This document shows, in pieces, positions 1 through 9,179 of a stretch of 9,179 nt of DNA; position 1 is the first letter of the stretch; each line of letters opens with the position of its first letter. Source of the DNA: a virus (lineage: Duplodnaviria > Heunggongvirae > Uroviricota > Caudoviricetes). Location: the IMG/VR virus record IMGVR_UViG_2537562190_000019; one strand, written 5' to 3'. The notes beneath the pieces are model-generated. The model ran no database searches and was not told the origin of the DNA. It saw only the letters and a program-made list of their open reading frames with translations. A program made the translations under genes and the position numbers.

Positions 1-256
1 TGTCAGTTATCATCTTCGGTTACGGTTATCGGCAGAACGCCCTGCCGCTGACAAGAGCTTATTTGCCTGACCAATCTACTCCACATGATAGATAACTATC
101 ATTTATAACATTTCATTGATTAGTCTTTATTTTTCACTACGTTACAAATAACAACCCCGTCAAAAACAGCGAAATTAACTACACCATTAACTACACCGTT
201 TCACGAACAATATCGAACAACCACGAACAAAGATCAACACGCTTTAACCGTTATCA

Positions 257-294
257 TTTTCCGGTTAAACGTTAATCAGGCTGGTGGGCTTTAC
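257..294. repeat. 38-bp perfect direct repeat, copy 1 (TTTTCCGGTTAAACGTTAATCAGGCTGGTGGGCTTTAC)
   Basis: Identical 38-mer at 257-294 and 617-654, offset exactly 360 bp. Sequence after each copy is related but degenerate (shared blocks cggta / atgatt / acccg / gggg). Confidence 0.9.
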
Positions 295-374
295 CTGTTC
301 GGTAGGTGTTATGATTATCGTAATACCCGTTAAAGGGGCCGAATACATCACCGGATTTAGGGGATGTTCCCTGC

Positions 375-521
375 CTCCTCAAATTGAGGATTGTGGAAGA
401 ATCAATGGGTTAGTCTTACTTTCCCAACATCCCCCAATGGGGGTTTTCGAAACAATCAATAGCTTAGGCTTACTTCCCCGATCTCCTCAAATTGAGGTTG
501 CCGGAAATATCAATGGGTTAG
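375..521. repeat. Nested imperfect direct repeats between the 38-bp copies (CTCCTCAAATTGAGG at 375-389 and 483-497; ATCAATGGGTTAG-like at 400-412, 455-467, 509-521)
   Basis: Direct reading. The CTCCTCAAATTGAGG motif is itself a small inverted repeat (CCTCA-AAT-TGAGG). The two CTCCTCAAATTGAGG copies are 108 bp apart. Confidence 0.8.
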
Positions 522-575
522 GCCATAGTGCAATTTTGCACTCTGAAACAATATCAACCAGTTACCGCCGCATCC

Positions 576-597
576 CGATATGGGAATCCCCATATCG
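576..597. repeat. Hairpin-forming inverted repeat CGATATGGG-AATC-CCCATATCG
   Basis: Perfect 9-bp stem with a 4-nt loop. A near-identical hairpin occurs 116 bp further on at 692-717. Confidence 0.75.
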
Positions 598-616
598 AGA
601 TTGGATACCTGGCTTT

Positions 617-654
617 TTTTCCGGTTAAACGTTAATCAGGCTGGTGGGCTTTAC
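617..654. repeat. 38-bp perfect direct repeat, copy 2
   Basis: Exact match to 257-294. Confidence 0.9.
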
Positions 655-733: not shown

Positions 734-1666
734 TCAGCTTTTCGCCAGAACGGTGACGGCCTTATCGAGTTTTTGCCATCCGCAATAGGTGATTGCCCTG
801 AACGCTGTAGCGTCATTCTGGAAAAGGCTAACCGCCCCTGATTCGGTTTTTATTACCGCCTCATCAGTTGGGGTTATAACCGTGGCTTCAACGTTAATAA
901 TCAGCTTTTGAGCGTCTATCAGCATCATGCGATCCGCCTGTTCGCTCACAATTACCGGTATTCTCAAAAGCTCTATCTGCCAGAACTCAGCATCAGTAAG
1001 CTGTAAAGCGTTTTCTACGGGCAAGATTAGCGACGACGTGGAAAGCGTGTTACCGTTCGCTATGTGCTTTTTGAAAAGCTCTATGAAGTTTTCGGCCTCA
1101 TCAGCACCATTAAGCACGCCCTCAGGGGATACGCCAGCCACCTCCTGATCACTGGAAAGAAATTTTTTATCTATTTCTTTCACCGATTCCGATGTGATCA
1201 AGTCTCTGATCGCTGAATTTGTACCAGGGGTGCTAAATTTGATTAGCTCGTTATTCAGCATCACAATAGCGCCAAGTTTGCACAGTTTTAGCGCGCTTTC
1301 GTTTACTTCTCCCTCTTTGACAGGGATTTCTTCGGCTTCTTTAAGCCATTTACTACCCTTGCCTGATATTGACTGCAATTTTGCGCCAAACGGAAGATTA
1401 AGCGCGCTGCTGATTAGCTTGCCTGGTACAGACTGCGAAAAAATATACTCGCCAAGCTCTCTTACTATCGGCTCTGCCACCAGCGACGGCATGTTATCCG
1501 TGTTCATTCCGGCAACAATGGATTTTTCAAGAAATAACGATACTGCCGGATCATTTCTTTTCGTCATCTCTATAGCGTCAGCATGGCTAAATTTACACGA
1601 TGCCAGCACGCTGGCGGCGCGAACTGCTGGCACGCCTTTCATGTTTTTACAGATCATCTTCTTCAT
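734..1666 (-). CDS. HK97-fold major-capsid-protein homologue (capsid-size-redirection-like); true start probably the ATG at 1657
   Basis: C-terminal two-thirds show capsid-like blocks as I recall the HK97 gp5 pattern: PEGVLNGADEAENFIEL (cf. EGQLLNGDGTGDNLEGL), RIPVIVSEQADRMMLIDAQ (cf. GLPVVPTKA...GTFTVGGF), NVEATV (cf. DATVEVS). No N-terminal delta/scaffold region. The GGAGG Shine-Dalgarno directly abuts ATG 1666 but sits 9 nt before ATG 1657. Confidence 0.55.
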   Translation of the reverse strand: MKKMICKNMKGVPAVRAASVLASCKFSHADAIEMTKRNDPAVSLFLEKSIVAGMNTDNMPSLVAEPIVRELGEYIFSQSVPGKLISSALNLPFGAKLQSISGKGSKWLKEAEEIPVKEGEVNESALKLCKLGAIVMLNNELIKFSTPGTNSAIRDLITSESVKEIDKKFLSSDQEVAGVSPEGVLNGADEAENFIELFKKHIANGNTLSTSSLILPVENALQLTDAEFWQIELLRIPVIVSEQADRMMLIDAQKLIINVEATVITPTDEAVIKTESGAVSLFQNDATAFRAITYCGWQKLDKAVTVLAKS

Positions 1667-1819: not shown

Positions 1820-2308
1820 TCAGTGTTTTAAGTCTGTTGGTGGCTTAGGGATGGGGAACCGATTTGAGTAGACACTAGCGGCATTGAGTTTTTTAACCTC
1901 TTTTTTCCCAATGCTGCCGATCTTGCGGTGGGTGAACTGGGCCAGCTTAAACGCGGCATCTAAAGCCAGTTTTGGATCTGTGTCCATGTTGTCAATCAGT
2001 ATCCTGCCCATTGCTTTGATGGGGTCGGGTAGGCCGTTATCCATCATCTCAATGGTGTTAATTGATGCCCGTTCCGGTGTAACTTTTTCGGTAACTTTCT
2101 TTGTAACTTTTTTCGGTTTTGTAACCTGAAAAGTTACATCAGAAGTTACAGCCTTAAGATACTTTTTCACCTCAGGATCGTTGGATAGCTGCCAGCCTTT
2201 AACCCTTGCGGTCTTTTCGCTGTATCCCGCATGTATAGCGGCTTCCGTGGGATTTGCGCCCCTTGATAACGCATCAGCAAACCGCTTTTTTTTGGTCGTT
2301 AATGCCAT
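1820..2308 (-). CDS. terS: Small terminase subunit-like protein (TerS-like / packaging-redirection-like), 162 aa
   Basis: N-terminal signature KKKRFADALSRGANPTEAAIHAGYSEKTARVKGWQLSNDPEVKKYL matches the HTH-type small-terminase pattern (...AT.AAI.AGYS.KTA...). Start reassigned from the GTG at 2449 to the in-frame ATG at 2308, which has GAGG 8 nt upstream; the upstream extension crosses a C9 homopolymer and repeats and is unlikely to be coding. Confidence 0.6.
   Translation of the reverse strand: MALTTKKKRFADALSRGANPTEAAIHAGYSEKTARVKGWQLSNDPEVKKYLKAVTSDVTFQVTKPKKVTKKVTEKVTPERASINTIEMMDNGLPDPIKAMGRILIDNMDTDPKLALDAAFKLAQFTHRKIGSIGKKEVKKLNAASVYSNRFPIPKPPTDLKH
2078..2151. repeat. Cluster of GTAACTTT(T) direct repeats plus inverted AAGTTAC copies inside the 5' third of terS
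   Basis: gtaacttttt 2079-2088, gtaactttc 2091-2099, gtaacttttt 2103-2112, gtaacc 2121-2126; inverted gttac at 2133-2137 and 2145-2149. Two more TGTAACTTTT copies lie upstream of the start at 2332-2354. Confidence 0.8.
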
Positions 2309-2438
2309 GCAAAAACCTCGTTTTGAGGGGGTGTAACTTTTCGTGTAACTTTTTTGAAAAGCAAAATTTTCTACGAATGAGACGGGGGGCGGTGTCCAGG
2401 GTGATCGACTTTCCGGCCGGAACACTCCCCCCCCCATG
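2309..2438 (-). promoter_or_regulatory. terS upstream control region: two TGTAACTTTT repeats, G6 tract, 12-bp perfect palindrome TTCCGGCCGGAA (2411-2422), C9 homopolymer (2427-2435)
   Basis: Direct reading. Palindrome and motif repeats sit where a promoter/operator for the packaging module would be; no -35/-10 could be assigned with confidence. Confidence 0.4.
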
Positions 2439-2600
2439 TCATTGCTCACCGAGTAACGAGATCAGGCCTTCAACTTCATTACTCAGCTTGTTTATTCGTG
2501 TCTCAAGCTCTGCGATCTTTTCCATCAATGGCGCTATGGTGTCTCTTGTTTCCTCGCCAATGGCCTTAATGATGCTTGCCTCGCGTTCTGTGATAGCCAT
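2439..2600 (-). CDS. Small coiled-coil-like hypothetical protein, 53 aa (MAITEREASIIKAIGEETRDTIAPLMEKIAELETRINKLSNEVEGLISLLGEQ); below the ORF-track cutoff
   Basis: ATG at 2600 with GGTGAGG 8 nt upstream; begins 4 nt after the stop of the upstream gene. Hand-translated. Confidence 0.4.
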   Translation of the reverse strand: MAITEREASIIKAIGEETRDTIAPLMEKIAELETRINKLSNEVEGLISLLGEQ

Positions 2601-3228: not shown

Positions 3229-3453
3229 CCTCTACCTCTCTACCCAATCATCTTTCAGGTCAGTAATGGCGCGGCTTTCAGATGGGTAGAGGGCTTTCGT
3301 GGCCCTCTACCCATCCTCTACCCGCTCCTCACAAACGACCTTAATCATGGTGGAGGGTGTAGAGGGCTTTTATTTGCCTTCTACCTGCCCCTCTACCCAC
3401 TTATCATATTGAATAATTTATATTTATTTTCTTTAGGTAGAAGAGGTAGAGGG
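3229..3453. repeat. Iteron-type replication origin: at least 6 direct CTCTACC(C) and 4 inverted GGTAGAG(GG) copies flanking an AT-rich stretch (about 3401-3435)
   Basis: Direct copies at 3229-3245 (x2), 3303-3323 (x2), 3378-3398 (x2); inverted copies at 3284-3293, 3359-3366, 3436-3453 (x2); GTAGAGGGCTTT recurs three times. It lies immediately 3' of the primase/helicase gene, the usual position of satellite and plasmid origins. Confidence 0.7.
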
Positions 3454-3466
3454 CTTTTGTCTAAAA

Positions 3467-5221
3467 TTATAAAAACGCGTCGCAATCATCAGTTGTAATT
3501 GCGTTGGTCTGCGTTACTCCCTTAACTCTCCGCGTAATATATTCATGTCCGTAAACTTTTGCCGCTGGCTTCATGGCCTTGCTGAACTCAGCCACGTTTA
3601 GCGGCTTGCTTCTTCCTGCGTATGCCATAAACGCCAGATAGACGCGGTAAAGGCTGTTCCTGGTCGTGTACTTCACTGAATCGCCACCGCCACCCATCAT
3701 CAGGCCGCGCGCTTCCTCCAGAAAATTCAGGAACTGGCAAAACTCAATAACCGGATCCGTCTGTTGCTTTATTGCCAGTGCTTCATCACCGTCGCGCTGT
3801 TCCAGGAGTAAAGCCCGTGCCTTTTCAGGGTCGGCAAAGTTCGCCAGTAATCGGCGGATAATCACAGGGATTTCAGCCGCGACCTTCTCCGGCAAATCCT
3901 TGTCCTTTTCTGCCTCGCTAACGATATTGTCAAAGCGAAAAATCACCCGACGGCGTGACACACCTCCGGCCCGCTCGGTGAATATCATCGGGTTGTTGTT
4001 GGTCGCCAGTACCACCGCCCTTATTACCGTCGTGAATCGCTTCTCATATTTCGGGTTAATTTCGACGGGGTCGCCGCCCGTGATTTTCTTGATGCCCGTT
4101 CCTTCGCCTGTATATTTCGGTTGGTCAGCCAGGACGATAAGACGACTCCCGACAACCTGCGCACGTCCACCAGCATCATCAAGCGATGTCATTTCAGCGC
4201 TTACCGTGTTCTGTTTCCCTGCCAGAAGGCTGGCTATGTGCGTGAATGTACTTTTACCGCTACCGCCGTCTCCGGTGGCCTCAATAAACATCTGCCAGTC
4301 GTACCGGTTCGCCATAATCATGTACAGCGCGGCACATATACGCATCATCTTGCGCGGGTCTTTTCCGGCTGCGTGATCAAGCCATTTGTGAAAGTTTGGC
4401 GCGTTGTCGCGAATGTTCTCCCCAGGTGCTGGTGGCGTGTACTCAATGCCGTTGTGCGTGGTGATCCAGTTCTCCGGCGTGTGCGGGGAAAATTCCCCCG
4501 TTTTCAGGTCAAGCGCACCATTGGCGAACGGCAGCAAATCGCCGGACGGCTCCCCCATTGGTTCGGCAATAACTTTTAACGCTTCAACGGCGTTATTGAT
4601 CACGCGTTTGCTGAAAGTGGCCCTGTGCTCTGAATAGATCGCCACCATTTCGCGGCTAAGTTCCATTGTGCTGACCGGACACCATAACCCGCCGCGCCAT
4701 ACGTGAACGATTTCACTTTCAGGATGTACGCAAACGCCATCAAAGCGATCGGAAAGCAGCTGAGCGCGTTCACTGTCCGCCATCTGCGAAAGTTGCGCCT
4801 TTTGCTTTACCGGAAGCTCAACGACCAGACCTTCAGAAAGATTCTGGCGCTCACGGGCAAGATATTCGCGCCAGTTCTCCACCTTCTGACCGTGCATTCC
4901 TTCGGGGTAAAAATTTGCATCCTGTACACCTGCCGCCGCCAGCTTCTGACCAATCTTTTTGGTCTCCACCAAGTCCAGTTCTCCTGCCTGGTACAGCCTT
5001 ACGCGTTTTTTTCCATCAGGAACAATTTGCAGTGCATCAAGTTCGGCAAGCTGATTTGGCCCAAGCCACACAGGAGGCACATTATCGCCGGATGCGGGGC
5101 CGTCCTGCTCCTGCCACTGTTTTGCATGTGCCCACGCATCACTACCCGCGAAAATAATCACCTCTGTGTCTTTGTGTTTTATTCCGCGTGGCTGTTTTTT
5201 TACGTTCGGTGCCAGTTTCAT
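3467..5221 (-). CDS. Replicative primase/helicase (P4-family primase C-terminal / D5-like SF3 NTPase domain)
   Basis: Walker A GDGGSGKST, Walker-B-like RLIVLADQ, and the P4-family primase C-terminal signature IKKITGGDPVEINPKYEKRFT (cf. LTGGD...F). ATGA overlap with the upstream 99-aa gene. Confidence 0.75.
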   Translation of the reverse strand: MKLAPNVKKQPRGIKHKDTEVIIFAGSDAWAHAKQWQEQDGPASGDNVPPVWLGPNQLAELDALQIVPDGKKRVRLYQAGELDLVETKKIGQKLAAAGVQDANFYPEGMHGQKVENWREYLARERQNLSEGLVVELPVKQKAQLSQMADSERAQLLSDRFDGVCVHPESEIVHVWRGGLWCPVSTMELSREMVAIYSEHRATFSKRVINNAVEALKVIAEPMGEPSGDLLPFANGALDLKTGEFSPHTPENWITTHNGIEYTPPAPGENIRDNAPNFHKWLDHAAGKDPRKMMRICAALYMIMANRYDWQMFIEATGDGGSGKSTFTHIASLLAGKQNTVSAEMTSLDDAGGRAQVVGSRLIVLADQPKYTGEGTGIKKITGGDPVEINPKYEKRFTTVIRAVVLATNNNPMIFTERAGGVSRRRVIFRFDNIVSEAEKDKDLPEKVAAEIPVIIRRLLANFADPEKARALLLEQRDGDEALAIKQQTDPVIEFCQFLNFLEEARGLMMGGGGDSVKYTTRNSLYRVYLAFMAYAGRSKPLNVAEFSKAMKPAAKVYGHEYITRRVKGVTQTNAITTDDCDAFL

Positions 5222-5517
5222 TTCTTACCCCTGAATACGTTAAGCATCTTTTTTATTTCCTGAATATTGGCGCGTGCTTTCTCCCTGCTGGTGGGCACGT
5301 TACGCGGTACAGCCTGCACCAGAGAAAAATCACGATCGAACTGATAAACAGGCATAACGCAATCATATTCGTAGCCTTCACGGCGGTAAGTTACGCGCCG
5401 TTCCTCCACGCCCTTAATCATTACCGTGCCGCCGTACTTATCGCGGTAAATATCCCCGCACATGAATTTAGTGCGAGTTTTGCCGCTGGCAGTTAAGCCA
5501 GGATATTTAAGTTTCAT
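5218..5517 (-). CDS. Hypothetical protein, 99 aa
   Basis: GGAGA Shine-Dalgarno 6 nt upstream of ATG 5517; 4-bp overlap with the primase start suggests translational coupling. Confidence 0.6.
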   Translation of the reverse strand: MKLKYPGLTASGKTRTKFMCGDIYRDKYGGTVMIKGVEERRVTYRREGYEYDCVMPVYQFDRDFSLVQAVPRNVPTSREKARANIQEIKKMLNVFRGKK

Positions 5518-5949: not shown

Positions 5950-6135
5950 TTACTCCTCATCCTGAATACATGTCACTGTGTGGATAATTACGCCGGATAA
6001 ACCGGCTTTAGCTGATTTGTTAATTACTGTGCTGATTGCAGCCTGGACGTTTTCGGCCTTCACGTTCTGCGTGATGCCAACGGTATAGCCGCGCTTGTTA
6101 ACAGCACGGGAAAAAACGCGGAAGGTTTTAAGCAT
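5950..6135 (-). CDS. Hypothetical protein, 61 aa
   Basis: ATG 6135 with a G-rich Shine-Dalgarno; overlaps the end of the upstream 67-aa gene by 8 nt. Confidence 0.5.
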   Translation of the reverse strand: MLKTFRVFSRAVNKRGYTVGITQNVKAENVQAAISTVINKSAKAGLSGVIIHTVTCIQDEE

Positions 6136-6331
6136 GACGCACCCCCTGACGAATACGAGCGGCGAATACCATCACGCAGCCAGCCGGAGATTGCTGGCGC
6201 GCTTCCTGTTCGCTGGTGGCCTCGATGGTAATCACGCGCGGCTGTGCCGTGCTCAGGGCGATAAAACGCCAGATGTATTTATTCAGGTTGTGCGAGTCCC
6301 GCCCTTGCGGGTGTGTGGTATGATTTCTCAT
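6128..6331 (-). CDS. Small protein, 67 aa, possibly Icd-like (host cell division inhibitor-like); first gene of the leftward operon
   Basis: The C-terminal 67 codons of the 243-aa track ORF, starting at ATG 6331 with GAGGT 4 nt upstream. The rest of that track ORF runs through the divergent promoter and antisense to the regulator gene. The pattern IWRFIALS...ITIEATSEQEARQQ...VMVFAARI recalls Icd-like proteins of P4-type prophages; this is from memory, not a search. Confidence 0.45.
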   Translation of the reverse strand: MRNHTTHPQGRDSHNLNKYIWRFIALSTAQPRVITIEATSEQEARQQSPAGCVMVFAARIRQGVRHA

Positions 6332-6428
6332 AGCTACCTCGATACTTTCGCTATCGTTGGTTGTTAGACGCCCTGCATGTGTTGCGAGCACTGTAGGGCG
6401 TTGCTTAATTTGAGTGACAAAACTCAAA

Positions 6429-6509
6429 CTGTGCGCACAGATTAAAATCATGTGTGCGCACATGTCAATACTTAACATCTCATTTTTTTTGCTGTATTGT
6501 GTGCGCCCA
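6429..6509. promoter_or_regulatory. Divergent promoter/operator region with TGTGCGCACA palindromes
   Basis: Perfect palindromes CTGTGCGCACAG (6429-6440) and TGTGCGCACA (6453-6462), centres 23 bp apart; a degenerate third copy TGTGCGCCCA (6500-6509) about 28 bp before the regulator ATG. An interrupted inverted repeat ACGCCCT-N20-AGGGCGT lies at 6368-6401. Confidence 0.6.
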
Positions 6510-6536
6510 TAAAGTCCATTTAAGTGAGGTGCATCA

Positions 6537-6734
6537 ATGTCTAGCGGTAACACAAACAACAAATCAGCAAAGAAAAATATTCGATTCCCACATGAGCTTA
6601 TAGATGGGATTGATGCCAGCGTTGAACAAGAAAAATTAACTAATCCTAGTGCTAATTTTTCCGCATGGGTCTTAGATGCCTGTGGACGCAAATTAAAATA
6701 TGAACAGCGCCGCAAGGCCAAAGAGCAGGAATAG
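6537..6734 (+). CDS. Small DNA-binding regulator, 65 aa, putative ribbon-helix-helix (Arc/CopG-like); the only plus-strand gene
   Basis: GAGGTG 6 nt upstream of the ATG. KNIRFPHELIDGIDASV...NFSAWVLDACGRKL has an RHH-like strand-helix-helix pattern. Divergent from the operon with operators between, and followed by a clean intrinsic terminator. Confidence 0.6.
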   Translation: MSSGNTNNKSAKKNIRFPHELIDGIDASVEQEKLTNPSANFSAWVLDACGRKLKYEQRRKAKEQE

Positions 6735-6822
6735 TCCACCAGCAAGCCAGCACACTGAGCACATTGCCCACCAGACAGCAAATCGCTATGATGTTCTGGC
6801 TTATGTTTAGTGTTTTCCCATT

Positions 6823-6851
6823 GGCGACCGCCACAGGTCGCCTTTGTTTTA
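6823..6851 (+). terminator. Rho-independent terminator of the plus-strand regulator gene
   Basis: GGCGACC-GCCACA-GGTCGCC (7-bp GC-rich stem, 6-nt loop) followed by TTTGTTTTA. Confidence 0.7.
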
Positions 6852-6869
6852 TGTGTCATATGCTCCCCT

Positions 6870-7094
6870 TTACACTGCCTTACCTGAATTAATGCGATCC
6901 CGGCTTTTAACCCATTCCATAACCTCGGACAGCAGCCACCCTACAGAACGACCGCCCAGATTAAGACGTGACGGAAAGCGCCCTTTTTTCTCCAGTTCGT
7001 AGCGTGTAGTGCGGCACACTCCTGTTAACTTACGGCATTCATCCTCACGGATTACGCGATCTGATAGTGATTGAAATTGTGTATTTTGATTCAT
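6870..7094 (-). CDS. alpA: AlpA-family phage transcriptional regulator / excisionase-like protein, 74 aa
   Basis: LNLGGRSVGWLLSEVMEWVKSR matches the AlpA signature (...GxRSVGW...E...EW...) and the small HTH size fits. GAGGA lies 9 nt upstream of the ATG. Confidence 0.75.
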   Translation of the reverse strand: MNQNTQFQSLSDRVIREDECRKLTGVCRTTRYELEKKGRFPSRLNLGGRSVGWLLSEVMEWVKSRDRINSGKAV

Positions 7095-7156: not shown

Positions 7157-7189
7157 GTGTGATATCACACTACCAGCACGTGATATCAC
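7157..7189. promoter_or_regulatory. Paired palindromic operators GTGTGATATCACAC (7157-7170) and GTGATATCAC (7180-7189), centres 21 bp apart
   Basis: A perfect 14-bp palindrome and a perfect 10-bp palindrome two helical turns apart; the second overlaps the TGA stop of the 257-aa gene. A possible -10 (TAGAAT, minus strand about 7135-7130) lies just downstream. Confidence 0.55.
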
Positions 7190-7959
7190 TTTTTACGTTT
7201 TTGTTGAGATTCACGCCCCAAATACTTTTGCCATGTCTGCCAATGTGTTTTTGGAAATTCTATCCCTCTGGATGCAGCTATAGAATCAATTAAATCTGCT
7301 ATTTTAGGTAATGATTCCGTGTCCAGGTCTACATCACCCATTTCTGGAATAAGTTTAATTAAAGAGTAAATAACCTCATTCCTTTTTGACGATGCTTTTG
7401 GGCTATCTTCTGTTATCTTCGGGAAGTCTCCCGTATTTTTTATATTATCTAAATCACTAGCCATCACACACAAATAGTTAACATCAAATTCATAACCACC
7501 CTTACAAAAAACATACATGAGATTATCATCACCATACTTATTCGTAAGATGAGAACATTTTATATATTGTCTCATGCTAAATTCGACATCAGCAAAAACA
7601 TATGCCGGAGTATAATAAAACCCTGATAAGCTGCTAACATAATAACATTTGATAGAATTCCCTACAGGACCAATAATGGCACTATCTAAAAATTCAGTGT
7701 CACCAGTTAAACCAACTGTAAAATTACTTCCAAAAACAGCAGATTCATCATTGAAAGGATATTTTATTAATTCTTCCTCATTACAACCATTGATAAAATG
7801 ACATAATGAAAAATTGAATTTTTTAGCATCAATTTTTGGTATATATACAGAAATATTAAGAGCACCTATATATGCGTAATGATAAAGATCTTTTATTGCA
7901 CAGCCTAACTTTTCTGCCGCTTCAGGTAACGGATAATAGAGTCTTTTAGGTAATTTCAT
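7186..7959 (-). CDS. AT-rich hypothetical protein, 257 aa, unassigned family; N-terminal HTH-like segment plus a ~210-aa domain of unknown function; candidate accessory/defence cargo
   Basis: ATGA start/stop overlap with the integrase stop (7956-7959) and AGGTGG upstream. Composition is strikingly AT-rich (roughly one-third G+C by eye) against roughly half for flanking genes. N-terminal LPEAAEKLGCAIKDLYHYAYIGAL resembles excisionase/AlpA-type HTH. Confidence 0.7.
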   Translation of the reverse strand: MKLPKRLYYPLPEAAEKLGCAIKDLYHYAYIGALNISVYIPKIDAKKFNFSLCHFINGCNEEELIKYPFNDESAVFGSNFTVGLTGDTEFLDSAIIGPVGNSIKCYYVSSLSGFYYTPAYVFADVEFSMRQYIKCSHLTNKYGDDNLMYVFCKGGYEFDVNYLCVMASDLDNIKNTGDFPKITEDSPKASSKRNEVIYSLIKLIPEMGDVDLDTESLPKIADLIDSIAASRGIEFPKTHWQTWQKYLGRESQQKRKK

Positions 7960-9179
7960 TTGGCCACCTTCAGCATAACAATATTTTCATGATTTCCAGC
8001 CAGCACATCGAGACGCTCAACCCATAGATTAAGAGCGTCACGTTTTGCATCAAGATAACGGGAGTGATTATAGACTCGTTGCATTCCTGGCAACTGGTGC
8101 GCGGTAAGCTGCTCCACAACGTGCGGTTCCACGCCTAAATCGTTCAGCATCGTTGTAAACGTGTGCCGGATGTCGTGCAACGTCCAGGGGGCTTGATTAA
8201 TGCGTCTGTGTGCCGTTCTTCCGTACTCTGATACGGATGATTGCCCTTTCAGTTCTCCGAGCAATAATCCCGTGTGCCTGTTCTGCTCCACCAGCTTCAT
8301 GACAAACGGCAAGATCGCTTCCGGTATTGGCCTGAATATTGCTACCTTCGTTTTGCTGTGTTCTTTCGGCACGGTCCAGAGCATTTCTTTAAAATCCCAT
8401 TCCTGGACCTCAGAGCGTCTTAGCTCAGTGGTACGACATCCGAAGACAATCAGGAGGCGAATCAGGGCGCTGTAGTACGGTGGGTAAATTTTTTCATCAA
8501 GGGCGCGTAGTAATTCCCCAAGCTCCTTGTTTGTTAGTACGCGCTCGCTTATTTCTGCTTTTTTCCCAACATCACCGACAACCATATCATCAAGAACGTT
8601 GCTGATTGCGTATCGTCGTTTTCGGCAGTACTTAAGCGCCTGTTTGCATACCTGTAGCAAAAATCCGGCTGATACCGGATTACGCTTAGCAAGCTGGTCA
8701 AAACAGGCCAGCCAGTGGCGTAGCTCGCATTTTTCCAGTGGCATAGCGCCAATCTGGCTAATTATGTGTTTATTGATCCGGCTTTTCAGTGATTCGTAGT
8801 CAGTGCGCTTTTCCTTTGCGTACGATTCAAGCCAGTAAGTGAGCGCTTCCTTAACCGTCACGGGGGCTAACGCGTCCTGTACAGCATGATTAAGTTCATA
8901 GCGCGGATTTTTCCCCTCAGCCAGCCAGGCGCGACACTGTGCCGCTTTTTCCCTGGCAGCTTTCAGGCTCAGATCGGGATAATTGCCCAGCCTCAGACGT
9001 TCCGGTGATATCTGCCTACCAGTTCCGGCCCTGTAAGTGAAATACCAGGTTAACAGGCCATTGGTTGAATGCCTTACGCTAAGGTTGCCACCATCATTAA
9101 AAAAGGTGTTTTTTGTGGTTGGTGATCCGCTTAATTTTCGTAAAAGAGTGTCGCTAAGTCTATGAATTGCCCTGCTCAT
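7956..9179 (-). CDS. int: Tyrosine site-specific integrase, P4-like family, 407 aa
   Basis: N-terminal arm-binding-like region (TWYFTYRAGTGRQ...), catalytic signatures CRTTELRR (Arg), LHDIRHTF (HxxR) and VYNHSRYLD (His...Tyr nucleophile). The ORF starts at the last base of the window, so its promoter and any attL/tRNA lie outside. Confidence 0.85.
   Translation of the reverse strand: MSRAIHRLSDTLLRKLSGSPTTKNTFFNDGGNLSVRHSTNGLLTWYFTYRAGTGRQISPERLRLGNYPDLSLKAAREKAAQCRAWLAEGKNPRYELNHAVQDALAPVTVKEALTYWLESYAKEKRTDYESLKSRINKHIISQIGAMPLEKCELRHWLACFDQLAKRNPVSAGFLLQVCKQALKYCRKRRYAISNVLDDMVVGDVGKKAEISERVLTNKELGELLRALDEKIYPPYYSALIRLLIVFGCRTTELRRSEVQEWDFKEMLWTVPKEHSKTKVAIFRPIPEAILPFVMKLVEQNRHTGLLLGELKGQSSVSEYGRTAHRRINQAPWTLHDIRHTFTTMLNDLGVEPHVVEQLTAHQLPGMQRVYNHSRYLDAKRDALNLWVERLDVLAGNHENIVMLKVAK

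Follow-up and report, generated by a model that had tools for sequence, protein, structure and literature searches.

Tandem IHF cores and roi-like dyads in the non-coding end of a putative PICI-type phage satellite of Escherichia coli

The site that most resembles the repeats described here lies within the roi gene of lambdoid phages. Work by Clerget and Boccard in 1996 (J Bacteriol 178:4077, a paper cited in PMC3430580) is said to have shown that the Roi protein binds within its own gene, at a site close to one for IHF; IHF reportedly stabilises Roi binding there. The HK022-type arrangement of a dyad and an IHF core is presumably this Roi/IHF composite site. In HK022, roi contains the sole perfect IHF core of the 6-kb stretch between P and Q, and this core is found 17 nt after the dyad. 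In IHF mutants, proteins of the pRha family prevent phages from growing (PMC4936722). Products of the roi genes display a Phage_pRha domain together with an ANT/KilAC domain.

Other described systems share part of this organization. The RIB/RIP element (BIME-1), reportedly described in 1993 both by Boccard and Prentki and by Oppenheim et al., is said to lie at the 3′ ends of operons and to have REP palindromes on either side of an IHF site. The datA locus of E. coli is a cluster of sites that requires IHF and titrates DnaA, and the iterons of the lambda origin lie inside the O gene. IHF assists the terminase at P1 pac, where an IHF site is present between hexamer repeats. It also assists the terminase at lambda cosB (PMC9026076), which has the IHF site I1 and R sites. 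In addition, Chi-rich lambdoid phages that are without recombination genes show a clustering of Chi at the phage genome ends (Zheng et al., PMC12315714).

The DNA analysed here (termed the window) is a stretch of 9,179 nucleotides which appears to be a phage satellite of the PICI type, inserted between clpS and cspD. Its satellite genes encode an integrase, an AlpA-like protein, a D5-type primase, a Terminase_2 small terminase and a capsid-like protein, whose gene carries the RefSeq label phage major capsid protein. No tRNA genes were found, and no recombination genes were detected in the element. The features of the non-coding end are as follows.

92–102, no strand assigned: att core ATAACTATCAT at the left island end, an 11-mer that is repeated past the integrase gene
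172–199, plus strand: two direct repeats ATTAACTACACC, candidate integrase arm-type sites (Tandem Repeats Finder, period 12, two copies)
202–239, plus strand: CGAACAA repeats with a period of ~10 bp; similar repeats are in the other att arm
257–294, plus strand: 38-mer copy 1, with Chi GCTGGTGG at 280–287
375–428, plus strand: array unit 1, with dyad CCTCAAATTGAGG at 377–389 and IHF core AATCAATGGGTTA at 400–412
429–482, plus strand: array unit 2, with dyad CCCCCAATGGGGG at 431–443 and IHF core AATCAATAGCTTA at 454–466
483–526, plus strand: array unit 3, with dyad CCTCAAATTGAGG at 485–497 and IHF core TATCAATGGGTTA at 508–520
527–564, plus strand: array unit 4, with even-centred palindrome AGTGCAATTTTGCACT at 527–542 and IHF core TATCAACCAGTTA at 552–564
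572–601, no strand assigned: palindrome ATCCCGATATGGGAATCCCCATATCGAGAT, a conserved upstream part of the 38-mer module
617–654, plus strand: 38-mer copy 2, with Chi at 640–647
692–719, no strand assigned: second copy of the CCCGATATGGGG..CCATATCGGG palindrome (from a repeat search)
734–1666, minus strand: capsid-like gene, the gene closest to the non-coding end (Pfam Phage_capsid, E = 1.2e-6)

A second copy of ATAACTATCAT is present ~180 bp past the integrase gene in the matching chromosome (L233), thus the att core is found at both ends. The ATTAACTACACC motif is also found in the other att arm and beside other integration sites in L006 and L009. Integrase arm sites had been proposed for the 38-mers in an earlier reading made from the sequence alone (the sequence-only reading); the candidate arm-type repeats are at 174–197, outside of the region of the 38-mers and the array, and form part of its context. 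The CGAACAA repeats at 202–239 are candidate AlpA/excisionase sites.

Further repeats within the 322-nt segment between the 38-mers, noted in the sequence-only reading, are present as three copies that start at positions 375, 429 and 483. Tandem Repeats Finder gives a 54-nt period with 2.8 copies at 374–523. Four perfect IHF cores (WATCAANNNNTTR) are found at 400, 454, 508 and 552, all on the plus strand; the number expected in the whole window on both strands is 0.52, and none of 200 shuffles reached four. Each core has a dyad palindrome ~17 bp upstream, whose sequence varies from unit to unit, and an A/T-rich tract at its 5′ side (TTTTCGAAAC or GGAAGA/GGAAAT). In 50 units, GAAA at positions −5 to −2 of the core is highly conserved. 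The 38-mer had been read as a protein-binding site, with IHF as one candidate. Predicted IHF cores are clearly present, however they are in the nested 54-nt repeats and not in the 38-mer. The satellite end does carry a non-coding cluster of protein-binding-type sites, but the 38-mer itself is without IHF cores.

The position of the dyad relative to the core was determined in 50 distinct satellite units. A dyad with at least five of six pairs is centred exactly 17 nt before the core in 36 of them, and an even-centred dyad half a base off −17 is found in 12 more. Four other units are within one base of −17 (three at −18), and the sole further offset is −25, in one unit. Complementarity is displayed at pair distances 1–6 by 29–36 of the 36 units, and beyond these distances by 16, 5 and 3 of the 36. 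Stem mismatches show no strand bias, i.e. there are 11 A–C and 8 G–T. These properties favour the dyad being a feature of double-stranded DNA, and the units being putative double-stranded protein-binding sites.

Phage sequences that match the units are single sites inside roi or antirepressor genes, with 92%–94% identity, and different satellite units resemble different roi alleles. Unit 1 has 93.9% identity over 49 nt with a roi-type anti-repressor gene of phage phi330, and unit 2 has 91.7% identity over 48 nt with roi of HK629, VT2-Sakai and other Stx phages. Unit 3 resembles roi alleles of the PQIEV type, and one unit of L006 shows 93.8% identity to the HK620/H-19B type of roi. Unit 4, together with other even-centred units of the GCAATTTTGC type, has no phage counterpart in the collections searched. 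The roi alleles matched by satellite units are PQIED, PPMVV, PALQV and PQIEV/PQFEV, with APMAN matched loosely. One satellite dyad (TTCCACAGTCTGTGGAA) was without a phage partner in the first allele set; a partner had been predicted, and the prediction held in that the dyad was later found with FPQ[ST]VEI roi-like genes.

In the phages, the longest perfect dyad is centred at nucleotide 102 in 20 of 28 distinct Roi N-domain variants, and an IHF core is present 17 nt past this nucleotide in 15 of the 28. The codon choice in roi gives the largest palindrome that the amino acids permit (P = 0.01–0.03 per allele). A relation between dyad type and the predicted recognition helix may be one of simple linkage, since both are in the same gene. 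The identity between phage and satellite is limited to the block from dyad to core, and the flanks vary freely; in L008, the homology runs upstream into the roi coding sequence (AAAAATGGTGTTATCCGGC). The PPMVV-type dyad is perfect in the satellite (CCCCCAATGGGGG) but imperfect in the phage (CCCCCAATGGTGG), and the change that perfects it would be non-synonymous in the phage gene. The FPQSVEI-type dyad has an IHF core attached in satellites, but this core is missing from the phage allele. A scan of viral contigs for the TTCGCCGCTGGCGAA dyad was swamped by chance matches in GC-rich contigs. When a Roi N-domain profile was compared with the six-frame open reading frames of the window, only the array's own translation was matched, and no encoded Roi-like domain was found. 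With the island lacking a Roi-like domain of its own, a dyad-binding protein would have to come in trans.

The array thus resembles the composite site of HK022 and other lambdoid roi genes in its 13-bp dyad 17 bp before a perfect IHF core. The phage site is single and in coding DNA, whereas the satellite sites are non-coding and tandem, with 3–6 units in an array, a 54-bp period and mixed allelic dyads. RIB/RIP also has an IHF core beside palindromes and downstream of a transcription unit, however the array units are tandem, their dyads are heterogeneous and they are homologous to a phage gene; we know of no sequence similarity between the array and REP. The iterons of the lambda origin are likewise sites for a phage protein inside its own gene, with a sequence that varies by allele, but the satellite has a separate primase-type replication gene and Roi is, to our knowledge, no replication initiator.

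Arrays of this kind occur in several satellite families and in many genomes. The same units are seen alongside a Terminase_2 small terminase, a Nu1-like protein, and a P27-family small terminase with TerL, and also at the end of a PICI whose last gene is perC, where no terminase gene is present in the island stretch examined. Arrays are found without the 38-mer, and the 38-mer is found as a single copy elsewhere. Array orientation relative to att differs by island type (the window compared with L008), and orientation relative to the flanking transcription unit varies between islands. The window and the O121 island (L002) have a common small terminase, and their arrays differ in composition. 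EcCIMP1, an experimentally studied PICI, has no array, though its att core also adjoins the L008 array; the array is thus not essential to the PICI life cycle. One scan for two adjacent units, with one genome per species, gave 28 chance-looking matches in taxa outside the Enterobacteriaceae, and no such array outside E. coli was accepted. In an unrelated viral contig (L044), five IHF cores at 54–55-bp spacing precede a Terminase_2 small terminase gene by ~250 bp. No description of such arrays was found in the literature searched, and the PICI literature read (including PMC6092414) makes no mention of them.

The 38-bp sequence that encloses the array, TTTTCCGGTTAAACGTTAATCAGGCTGGTGGGCTTTAC, is identical at 257–294 and 617–654, with starts 360 nt apart and 322 nt in between. 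By our own estimate, ~1e-15 repeats of 38 nt are expected by chance in 9.2 kb (~4e7 position pairs × 4^-38). As the sequence-only reading had it, the repeats are in the non-coding terminus, i.e. between the end of the capsid-like gene (734) and the att core (92–102). That reading also described the sequence after each 38-mer as related but diverged, and the 38-mer as a selectively conserved core. The relationship is present only loosely, the two stretches being alternative variants, both of which are found after single 38-mers in other islands. As a conserved element of satellite ends, the 38-mer is found in 951 of 5,426 E. coli genomes, but it is not invariant. Because 2–3 positions differ in other satellites, the 38/38 identity in the window points to a recent duplication or gene conversion and not to an absolute constraint.

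Both 38-mers contain the exact Chi octamer 5′-GCTGGTGG-3′, which is intact in 13 of 13 contexts from other satellites. There are 10 Chi sites in the 9.2 kb of the window, and the two in the 38-mers are near the element end. In this respect, and in having no recombination genes detected, the satellite resembles the Chi-rich lambdoid phages (PMC12315714), but it is not a phage and its Chi forms only part of a conserved element of 38 bp.

Most of the other satellites have the ATCCCGATATGGGAATCCCCATATCGAGAT palindrome ahead of their 38-mer. A run of seven T (614–620) leads into copy 2, whose final bases are a weak −35-like TTTACA, and a promoter-like match is present at 650–677 (the promoter scan gave one site, with 2.3 expected in that 1 kb). 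A promoter at the end of the 38-mer, with TTTACm as −35 and a −10-like hexamer 16–17 bp on, is a weak proposal, and the −10 candidates are unaligned between the variants. Copy 1 has a left edge that looks like a deletion junction: in comparison with the O121 island, 71 bp that lie between two TTTTCCGG repeats are absent.

The sequence-only reading listed a structured RNA among its candidates. This is disfavoured, as there is no Rfam match in the whole window at the gathering score (positions 1–1000 gave only noise at E > 1), the two strands fold equally (z-scores of −3.95 and −4.01), and the dyad includes the pair next to the central base, which is impossible in a hairpin. With respect to coding capacity, the open reading frame at 284–628 is in the roi frame, which stays open through the units. 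However, no Pfam family matches the array open reading frames, this one included (E ≤ 1), and the frame changes from one unit to the next. Consistent ends and a conserved start are lacking in the long open stretches examined, several of which continue into the antisense of real genes. A protein-coding gene at 284–628 was rejected on these grounds. A CRISPR-like array, suggested by the regular period and the variable segments, was also rejected: what varies is a palindrome whose distance from the IHF core is fixed, what stays constant is a protein-binding consensus, and there are no cas genes. It is very improbable that the region produces either a hairpin-rich non-coding RNA, e.g. one antisense to helper roi mRNA, or an 18-residue-repeat protein from 284–628. 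Such products would fit the compensatory changes that preserve the stems, the fold z-score of about −4 and the open frame; moreover, read-through of the minus-strand operon could yield a roi-antisense RNA, and antirepressor genes are under antisense control in P1, P7 and P22. Yet there is no G–U versus A–C bias, the invariant feature is a DNA-binding consensus, and the orientation to the flanking transcription unit is not constant between islands.

A role in packaging, with the array, the 38-mer or both as a pac/cos region at which the small terminase and bending by IHF start packaging, is suggested by the location directly downstream of packaging genes, by the IHF cores upstream of the terminase gene in L044, by the use of IHF at lambda cosB and P1 pac (both likewise have repeated protein sites with IHF bending beside packaging genes), and by PICI cos sites that map to island ends in other elements (PMC6092414). 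A resemblance to lambda cos was also proposed in the sequence-only reading. The local alignment with lambda positions 1–200 scores 22–24, which is the chance level, since 13 of 193 other windows of the sequence score at least 22. No match to a cosN-like GGGCGGCGACCT with three or fewer mismatches was found in 1–1700, and its total count is at the chance level. The lambda cos likeness of the 38-mer module was thus rejected. R-like sequence is also absent from the array. The site does not co-vary with the small-terminase type, which argues against pac: the same units accompany three unrelated types as well as the perC-ended PICI. One terminase could not read all of the dyads, since these differ within one array, and the units match phage roi and not phage terminase regions. 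With arrays that lack the 38-mer and single-copy 38-mers elsewhere, a packaging site is considered unlikely. A small probability is given to an IHF array of architectural function that is bound by other proteins than Roi (e.g. satellite or host regulators), with the roi homology reflecting origin only; its role would be in shaping the att-proximal end (for excision or integration), in blocking transcription or in compacting DNA. In every unit the perfect IHF core is what stays invariant, a core is joined even to the FPQSVEI dyad, some dyads are without a phage partner, and the array is at least ~130 bp beyond the candidate arm-type sites and the CGAACAA repeats. On the other hand, the dyads correspond one-to-one with distinct roi alleles, with their symmetry kept or improved, and are too different for any single satellite or host protein; the array also lies beyond the arm-type sites, and its direction with respect to att varies. 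It is quite unlikely that the array is a non-functional relic, i.e. roi fragments captured by recombination, amplified by slippage and now drifting. The upstream homology in L008, the open roi frame and the fast turnover of arrays between the window and L002 are in keeping with a relic. But the 50 distinct units retain core, dyad and spacing while flanks vary, identity with phages is confined to the dyad-to-core block, the PPMVV-type dyad has been perfected by a change that is non-synonymous in the phage gene, and arrays recur across several families of satellites and in many genomes. The innermost-pair symmetry, the lack of strand bias and the unrelated small terminases together argue for double-stranded protein sites over an RNA, a gene or a pac/cos region.

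The balance of the evidence, i.e. the observed site architecture, roi homology, allele matching and distribution, tips toward a binding array of multiple specificities for IHF and helper Roi proteins. The non-coding end contains two separable modules, the Chi-bearing 38-mer, duplicated around the array, and the array itself. The array units (13-bp dyad, ~17 bp, perfect IHF core) are copies of the composite site that is single in lambdoid roi. Host IHF is predicted to bind and bend each unit, and a dimer of helper Roi, with its pRha-type DNA-binding domain and KilAC antirepressor-type domain, may bind the adjacent dyad. The dyad-binding protein would be supplied in trans, and the different dyads would serve Roi alleles of different helpers, so that one satellite could bind Roi from several helper types.

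The preferred function of such a Roi/IHF array is that of a high-affinity sink or antenna, which would catch helper Roi once the helper enters lytic growth. Capture of Roi may then shift helper regulation, or signal the presence of a helper, to the benefit of the satellite; whether sink or sensor, this outcome is a guess. The proposed mode is similar to datA in that a cluster of regulator sites with IHF acts on the pool of a trans-acting protein, but here the target would be a helper-phage protein, with several specificities in one array. On linear satellite DNA, the Chi sites of the 38-mers would serve to attenuate RecBCD and favour recombination, a role that is modelled on the proposal for Chi-rich phages without recombination genes of their own. 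It should be noted that several observations count against the Roi reading: the relation of dyad type to recognition helix that may be mere linkage, the even-centred units without phage counterpart, the variable orientation to att, the lack of an array in EcCIMP1, the IHF array by the terminase gene in L044, the roi frame that is still open through the units, and the absence of accepted two-unit arrays outside E. coli in the scan.

A broader proposal, which is tentative and which we hold as possible and not as probable, is that phage satellites of E. coli, from several satellite families, carry fast-evolving operator libraries. Each module would come from the autoregulatory Roi/IHF site of a different helper roi allele and be tuned to a perfect dyad. 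Capturing or sensing the Roi of many helpers would then be a cis determinant of helper range or interference that is formed from stolen sites and not from proteins.

Little is settled on the way in which PICIs of Gram-negative bacteria recognise a helper, and the helper factor that activates them has been named as unidentified (PMC6092414). If the array binds helper Roi, this would represent a new coupling between satellite and helper, by IHF-assisted tandem decoy or antenna sites and not by a protein. For roi, a lambdoid gene that is widespread yet poorly understood, such binding would also supply a function and explain the palindromes of up to 25–27 bp that are kept in the coding sequence. 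Two observations, Chi inside the 38-mer and the nested repeats as copies of a site within phage roi genes, had been missed in the sequence-only reading. The Chi-bearing 38-mer, in an element where no recombination genes were detected, extends the pattern of no recombination genes and many Chi from phages to satellites. In EHEC strains, the composition of an array might make it possible to predict, for a given island, the Stx and other lambdoid phages that can mobilise it or that it affects.

Gene order in the window is that which PMC6092414 gives for Gram-negative phage-inducible chromosomal islands (PICIs), and the minus strand is the coding strand of all its genes:

7956–9179, minus strand, integrase
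6870–7094, minus strand, AlpA-like excisionase/regulator
6128–6859, minus strand, protein with a repressor-like C-terminal part
5218–5517, minus strand, DUF4222
3467–5221, minus strand, D5-type primase
1820–2449, minus strand, Terminase_2 small terminase
734–1666, minus strand, capsid-like protein, the last gene before the non-coding end

For an open reading frame of 257 aa between int and alpA (7186–7959, minus strand), neither Pfam nor PHROG gives a match. The insertion site in complete E. coli genomes is between clpS and cspD/yljB. The 11-bp att core ATAACTATCAT is at positions 92–102, with a second copy beyond int. Both att arms display AAATTAACTACACCATTrACTACACCGT and CGAACAA repeats with a period of ~10 bp (window positions 172–199 and 202–239; positions 165–330 of L233, the matching chromosome), and paired ATTAACTACACC repeats are present in each arm. 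The ATTAACTACACC pairs and CGAACAA repeats probably represent sites of the integrase arm type and sites for AlpA/excisionase. The positions of the att core and arm repeats thus place the 38-mers and the repeat array just inside one att arm.

The sequence-only reading had described two identical 38-mers that enclose nested repeats in the non-coding terminus, and this holds. The 38-mers are at 257–294 and 617–654 (start-to-start distance 360 nt) and between them are a 54-nt tandem repeat (2.8 copies, positions 374–523) and further palindromes; the whole region is non-coding and the nearest gene, encoding the capsid-like protein on the minus strand, terminates at 734. By our own estimate, the chance of such a 38-nt repeat in 9.2 kb is ~1e-15.

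The 38-mer is a piece of a longer conserved non-coding module, formed by the palindrome CGATATGGGGATCCCCATATCG, a T run, and then TTTTCCGGTTAA...AATCAGGCTGGTGGGyTTTAC. Among 5,426 complete E. coli genomes, 951 have the module; a single genome can have it in as many as four places, nearly always unannotated. No copy was found in the phage collection searched. Several types of satellite have it, usually as a single copy, and its position (the att side of the array) and orientation are constant. There are mundane reasons why the element measures exactly 38 bp. On its left side, copy 1 begins at a point where 71 bp that lie between two TTTTCCGG repeats in the O121 island L002 are missing (window position 257 vs. 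L002 positions 3255–3333); the missing segment contains a Chi-like ACTGGTGG and a palindrome. The right edge is the start point of two alternative downstream variants. Other satellites show 2–3 differing positions inside the 38 bp, thus the perfect 38/38 identity in the window suggests a recent duplication or conversion.

A 26–30-nt palindrome, CCCGATATGGGnATCCCCATATCG, is present in two copies, one on each side of 38-mer copy 2 (positions 572–601 and 692–719); in other satellites, too, it is conserved ahead of the 38-mer. Two records of small, non-mobilizable E. coli plasmids, NZ_CP148430.1 (12,152 bp) and CP088587.1 (32,560 bp), also include portions of the array or the 38-mer module; these could be circular satellites that had been excised and were then assembled as plasmids.

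The 38-mer includes a Chi octamer, GCTGGTGG, which is intact in 13 of 13 contexts examined while neighbouring bases vary. There are 10 Chi sites in the 9.2-kb window (plus strand: 280, 640, 4428, 5287, 5583, 6212; minus strand: 1477, 4167, 6736, 8288), where base composition predicts ~0.09 per strand and the E. coli genome average about two. EcCIMP1 (L236), a related PICI, has 16 in 20.8 kb. Chi-rich lambdoid phages that lack recombination genes have been described (Zheng et al., PMC12315714), and the satellite in the window fits the same pattern. The Chi sites in the 38-mers probably serve to shield linear satellite DNA and to favour its recombination.

A perfect IHF core, WATCAANNNNTTR, is what is conserved in all of the 54-nt units; the window has it at positions 400, 454, 508 and 552, each time on the plus strand. 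Four cores are observed vs. 0.52 expected for the whole window on both strands, which agrees with the earlier proposal of IHF sites. Ahead of each core is a palindrome that varies in sequence by unit but keeps its symmetry: CCTCAAATTGAGG in units 1 and 3, CCCCCAATGGGGG in unit 2, and AGTGCAATTTTGCACT in unit 4. The three-unit arrangement of the window is found in 88 E. coli genomes. E. coli chromosomes together with IMG/VR contigs provided about 44 arrays; the 29–30 distinct arrays analysed comprise 50 distinct units. The dyad centre is exactly 17 nt before the core in 36 units; 12 further units have an even-centred dyad half a base off, four others deviate by one base or less, and the sole further offset is –25, in one unit.

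Dyad symmetry at pair distances 1–6 is present in 29–36 of the 36 units and then drops to 16, 5 and 3. The comparison indicates that the conserved palindrome is a 13-bp dyad of double-stranded DNA, since a hairpin cannot form the conserved pair beside the central base. In agreement with this, stem mismatches show no strand bias, both strands fold equally well, and Rfam gives no match; the same observations speak against a structured RNA, one of the earlier candidates. An open frame through the units was considered as protein-coding, but it has no family match and its frame and ends are inconsistent. The sequence-only reading was partly right, about protein-binding sites and IHF, but not about a likeness to lambda cos: the alignment is at chance level and no cosN is present.

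The phage genomes searched match the units in one kind of place only, a single 48–49-nt site ~130 nt into the roi/antirepressor gene of lambdoid phages. These genes encode pRha-type N-terminal and KilAC (ANT) C-terminal domains. The link to roi, as well as the Chi site in the 38-mer, was missed in the sequence-only reading. Unit 1 shows 93.9% identity to the phi330-type allele (IRHPQIEDCGRINGLGL), unit 2 91.7% to the HK629/VT2-Sakai-type allele (IRNPPMVVFEKINNLGL), and a unit of the L006 island 93.8% to the HK620/H-19B-type allele. The identity is limited to the dyad-to-core block. In the PPMVV type, the dyad is perfect in the satellite copy and imperfect in the phage copy. A phage partner was predicted for the dyad TTCCACAGTCTGTGGAA of the L002 satellite, which had none in the earlier roi set; roi-like genes proved to have this dyad, at identical codon positions. 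Phages have one site each, whereas satellites carry tandem arrays of mixed types.

Viral contigs provided 28 distinct variants of the Roi N-domain. The same gene nucleotide is the centre of the longest perfect dyad in 20 of them, and the IHF core is 17 nt past that usual centre in 15. The dyads differ by allele (CCTCAAATTGAGG, CCTGCATTGCAGG, CGCCAATGGCG, and up to 25–27 bp around TTTCCACAGnCTGTGGAAA), and codon choice gives the largest palindrome that the amino acids permit (P = 0.01–0.03 per allele). Dyad position, allele variation and codon choice together indicate that the palindrome within the phage roi gene is selected at the DNA level. In HK022, the phage where Roi was studied, the sole perfect IHF core in the 6-kb P–Q stretch lies within roi, 17 nt after the dyad CTGCATTGCAG. 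Roi reportedly binds within its own gene, at a site with an IHF site close by, and IHF is said to stabilise the binding. PMC3430580 cites Clerget and Boccard (1996) solely in connection with lytic growth. According to PMC4936722, pRha-family proteins prevent phages from growing in IHF mutants.

The roi-like genes of the comparison sequences L351, L377 and relatives display perfect 25–27-bp palindromes (CAATTTCCACAGnCTGTGGAAATTG) in coding sequence (residues IQFPQ[ST]VEIEN), a dyad symmetry unusually long for coding DNA. The prophage roi genes of L148, L174, L186 and L188 have an A run between dyad and IHF core that is longer by one A (GAAAAAAATCAAT), which results in a frameshift and a dyad-core spacing of 18; these variants could represent a slippage-prone inactivation or a switch.

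Satellites that share these unit types at their ends have unrelated packaging proteins: Terminase_2 in the window, a Nu1-like protein in islands L005–L007, and a P27-family small terminase with TerL in L009, probably a capsid-forming PICI (cf-PICI; gene order compared with that in a bioRxiv paper). L008 and L010 are PICI ends with perC as the last gene and no terminase gene within the stretch fetched. This distribution is evidence against recognition of the units as a pac or cos site by the terminase of the island itself. Array composition also differs between islands with an identical small terminase protein (window vs. L002). A packaging-related role is nevertheless kept alive by L044, an unrelated high-GC viral contig, where five IHF-core repeats (AATCAATGrCTTAGC) with 54–55-nt spacing (~8460–8740, minus strand) precede a Terminase_2 small terminase gene (terS, 8986–9468) by ~250 bp. 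They occur with GTGACCACGTGGTCA-type palindromes and adjoin three ~35-nt direct repeats; the region may be a pac region or origin. Two of the Nu1-like islands sit within prophage late genes; the array-bearing islands L005 and L007 are inserted in prophage portal or major capsid genes, which fits helper-embedded PICIs (PMC10111431).

The window encodes no Roi-like domain, so that any protein that reads the dyads has to be supplied in trans. What sequence comparison establishes is the architecture of the composite site, its homology to the site inside roi, the matching of units to alleles, and the distribution. Some units are without a phage partner among the collections searched, array orientation relative to att is not constant between islands, and EcCIMP1 has no array. 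The open-access papers searched, on PICI discovery/Rpp, helper-embedded PICIs, cf-PICIs and EcCIMP1, and the Feiss review, do not mention the array or the 38-mer; an earlier description is possible.

The array is classed among cis-acting, IHF-assisted clusters of regulator sites. IHF would bend the units, and every dyad would be bound by a dimer of allele-matched Roi; the array may therefore serve as a platform for Roi proteins of several specificities. The preferred function, held loosely, is a sink or antenna for helper Roi once the helper is lytic and the satellite is amplifying. Since roi is upstream of Q, capture of Roi would disturb helper regulation, or it may report the presence of the helper.
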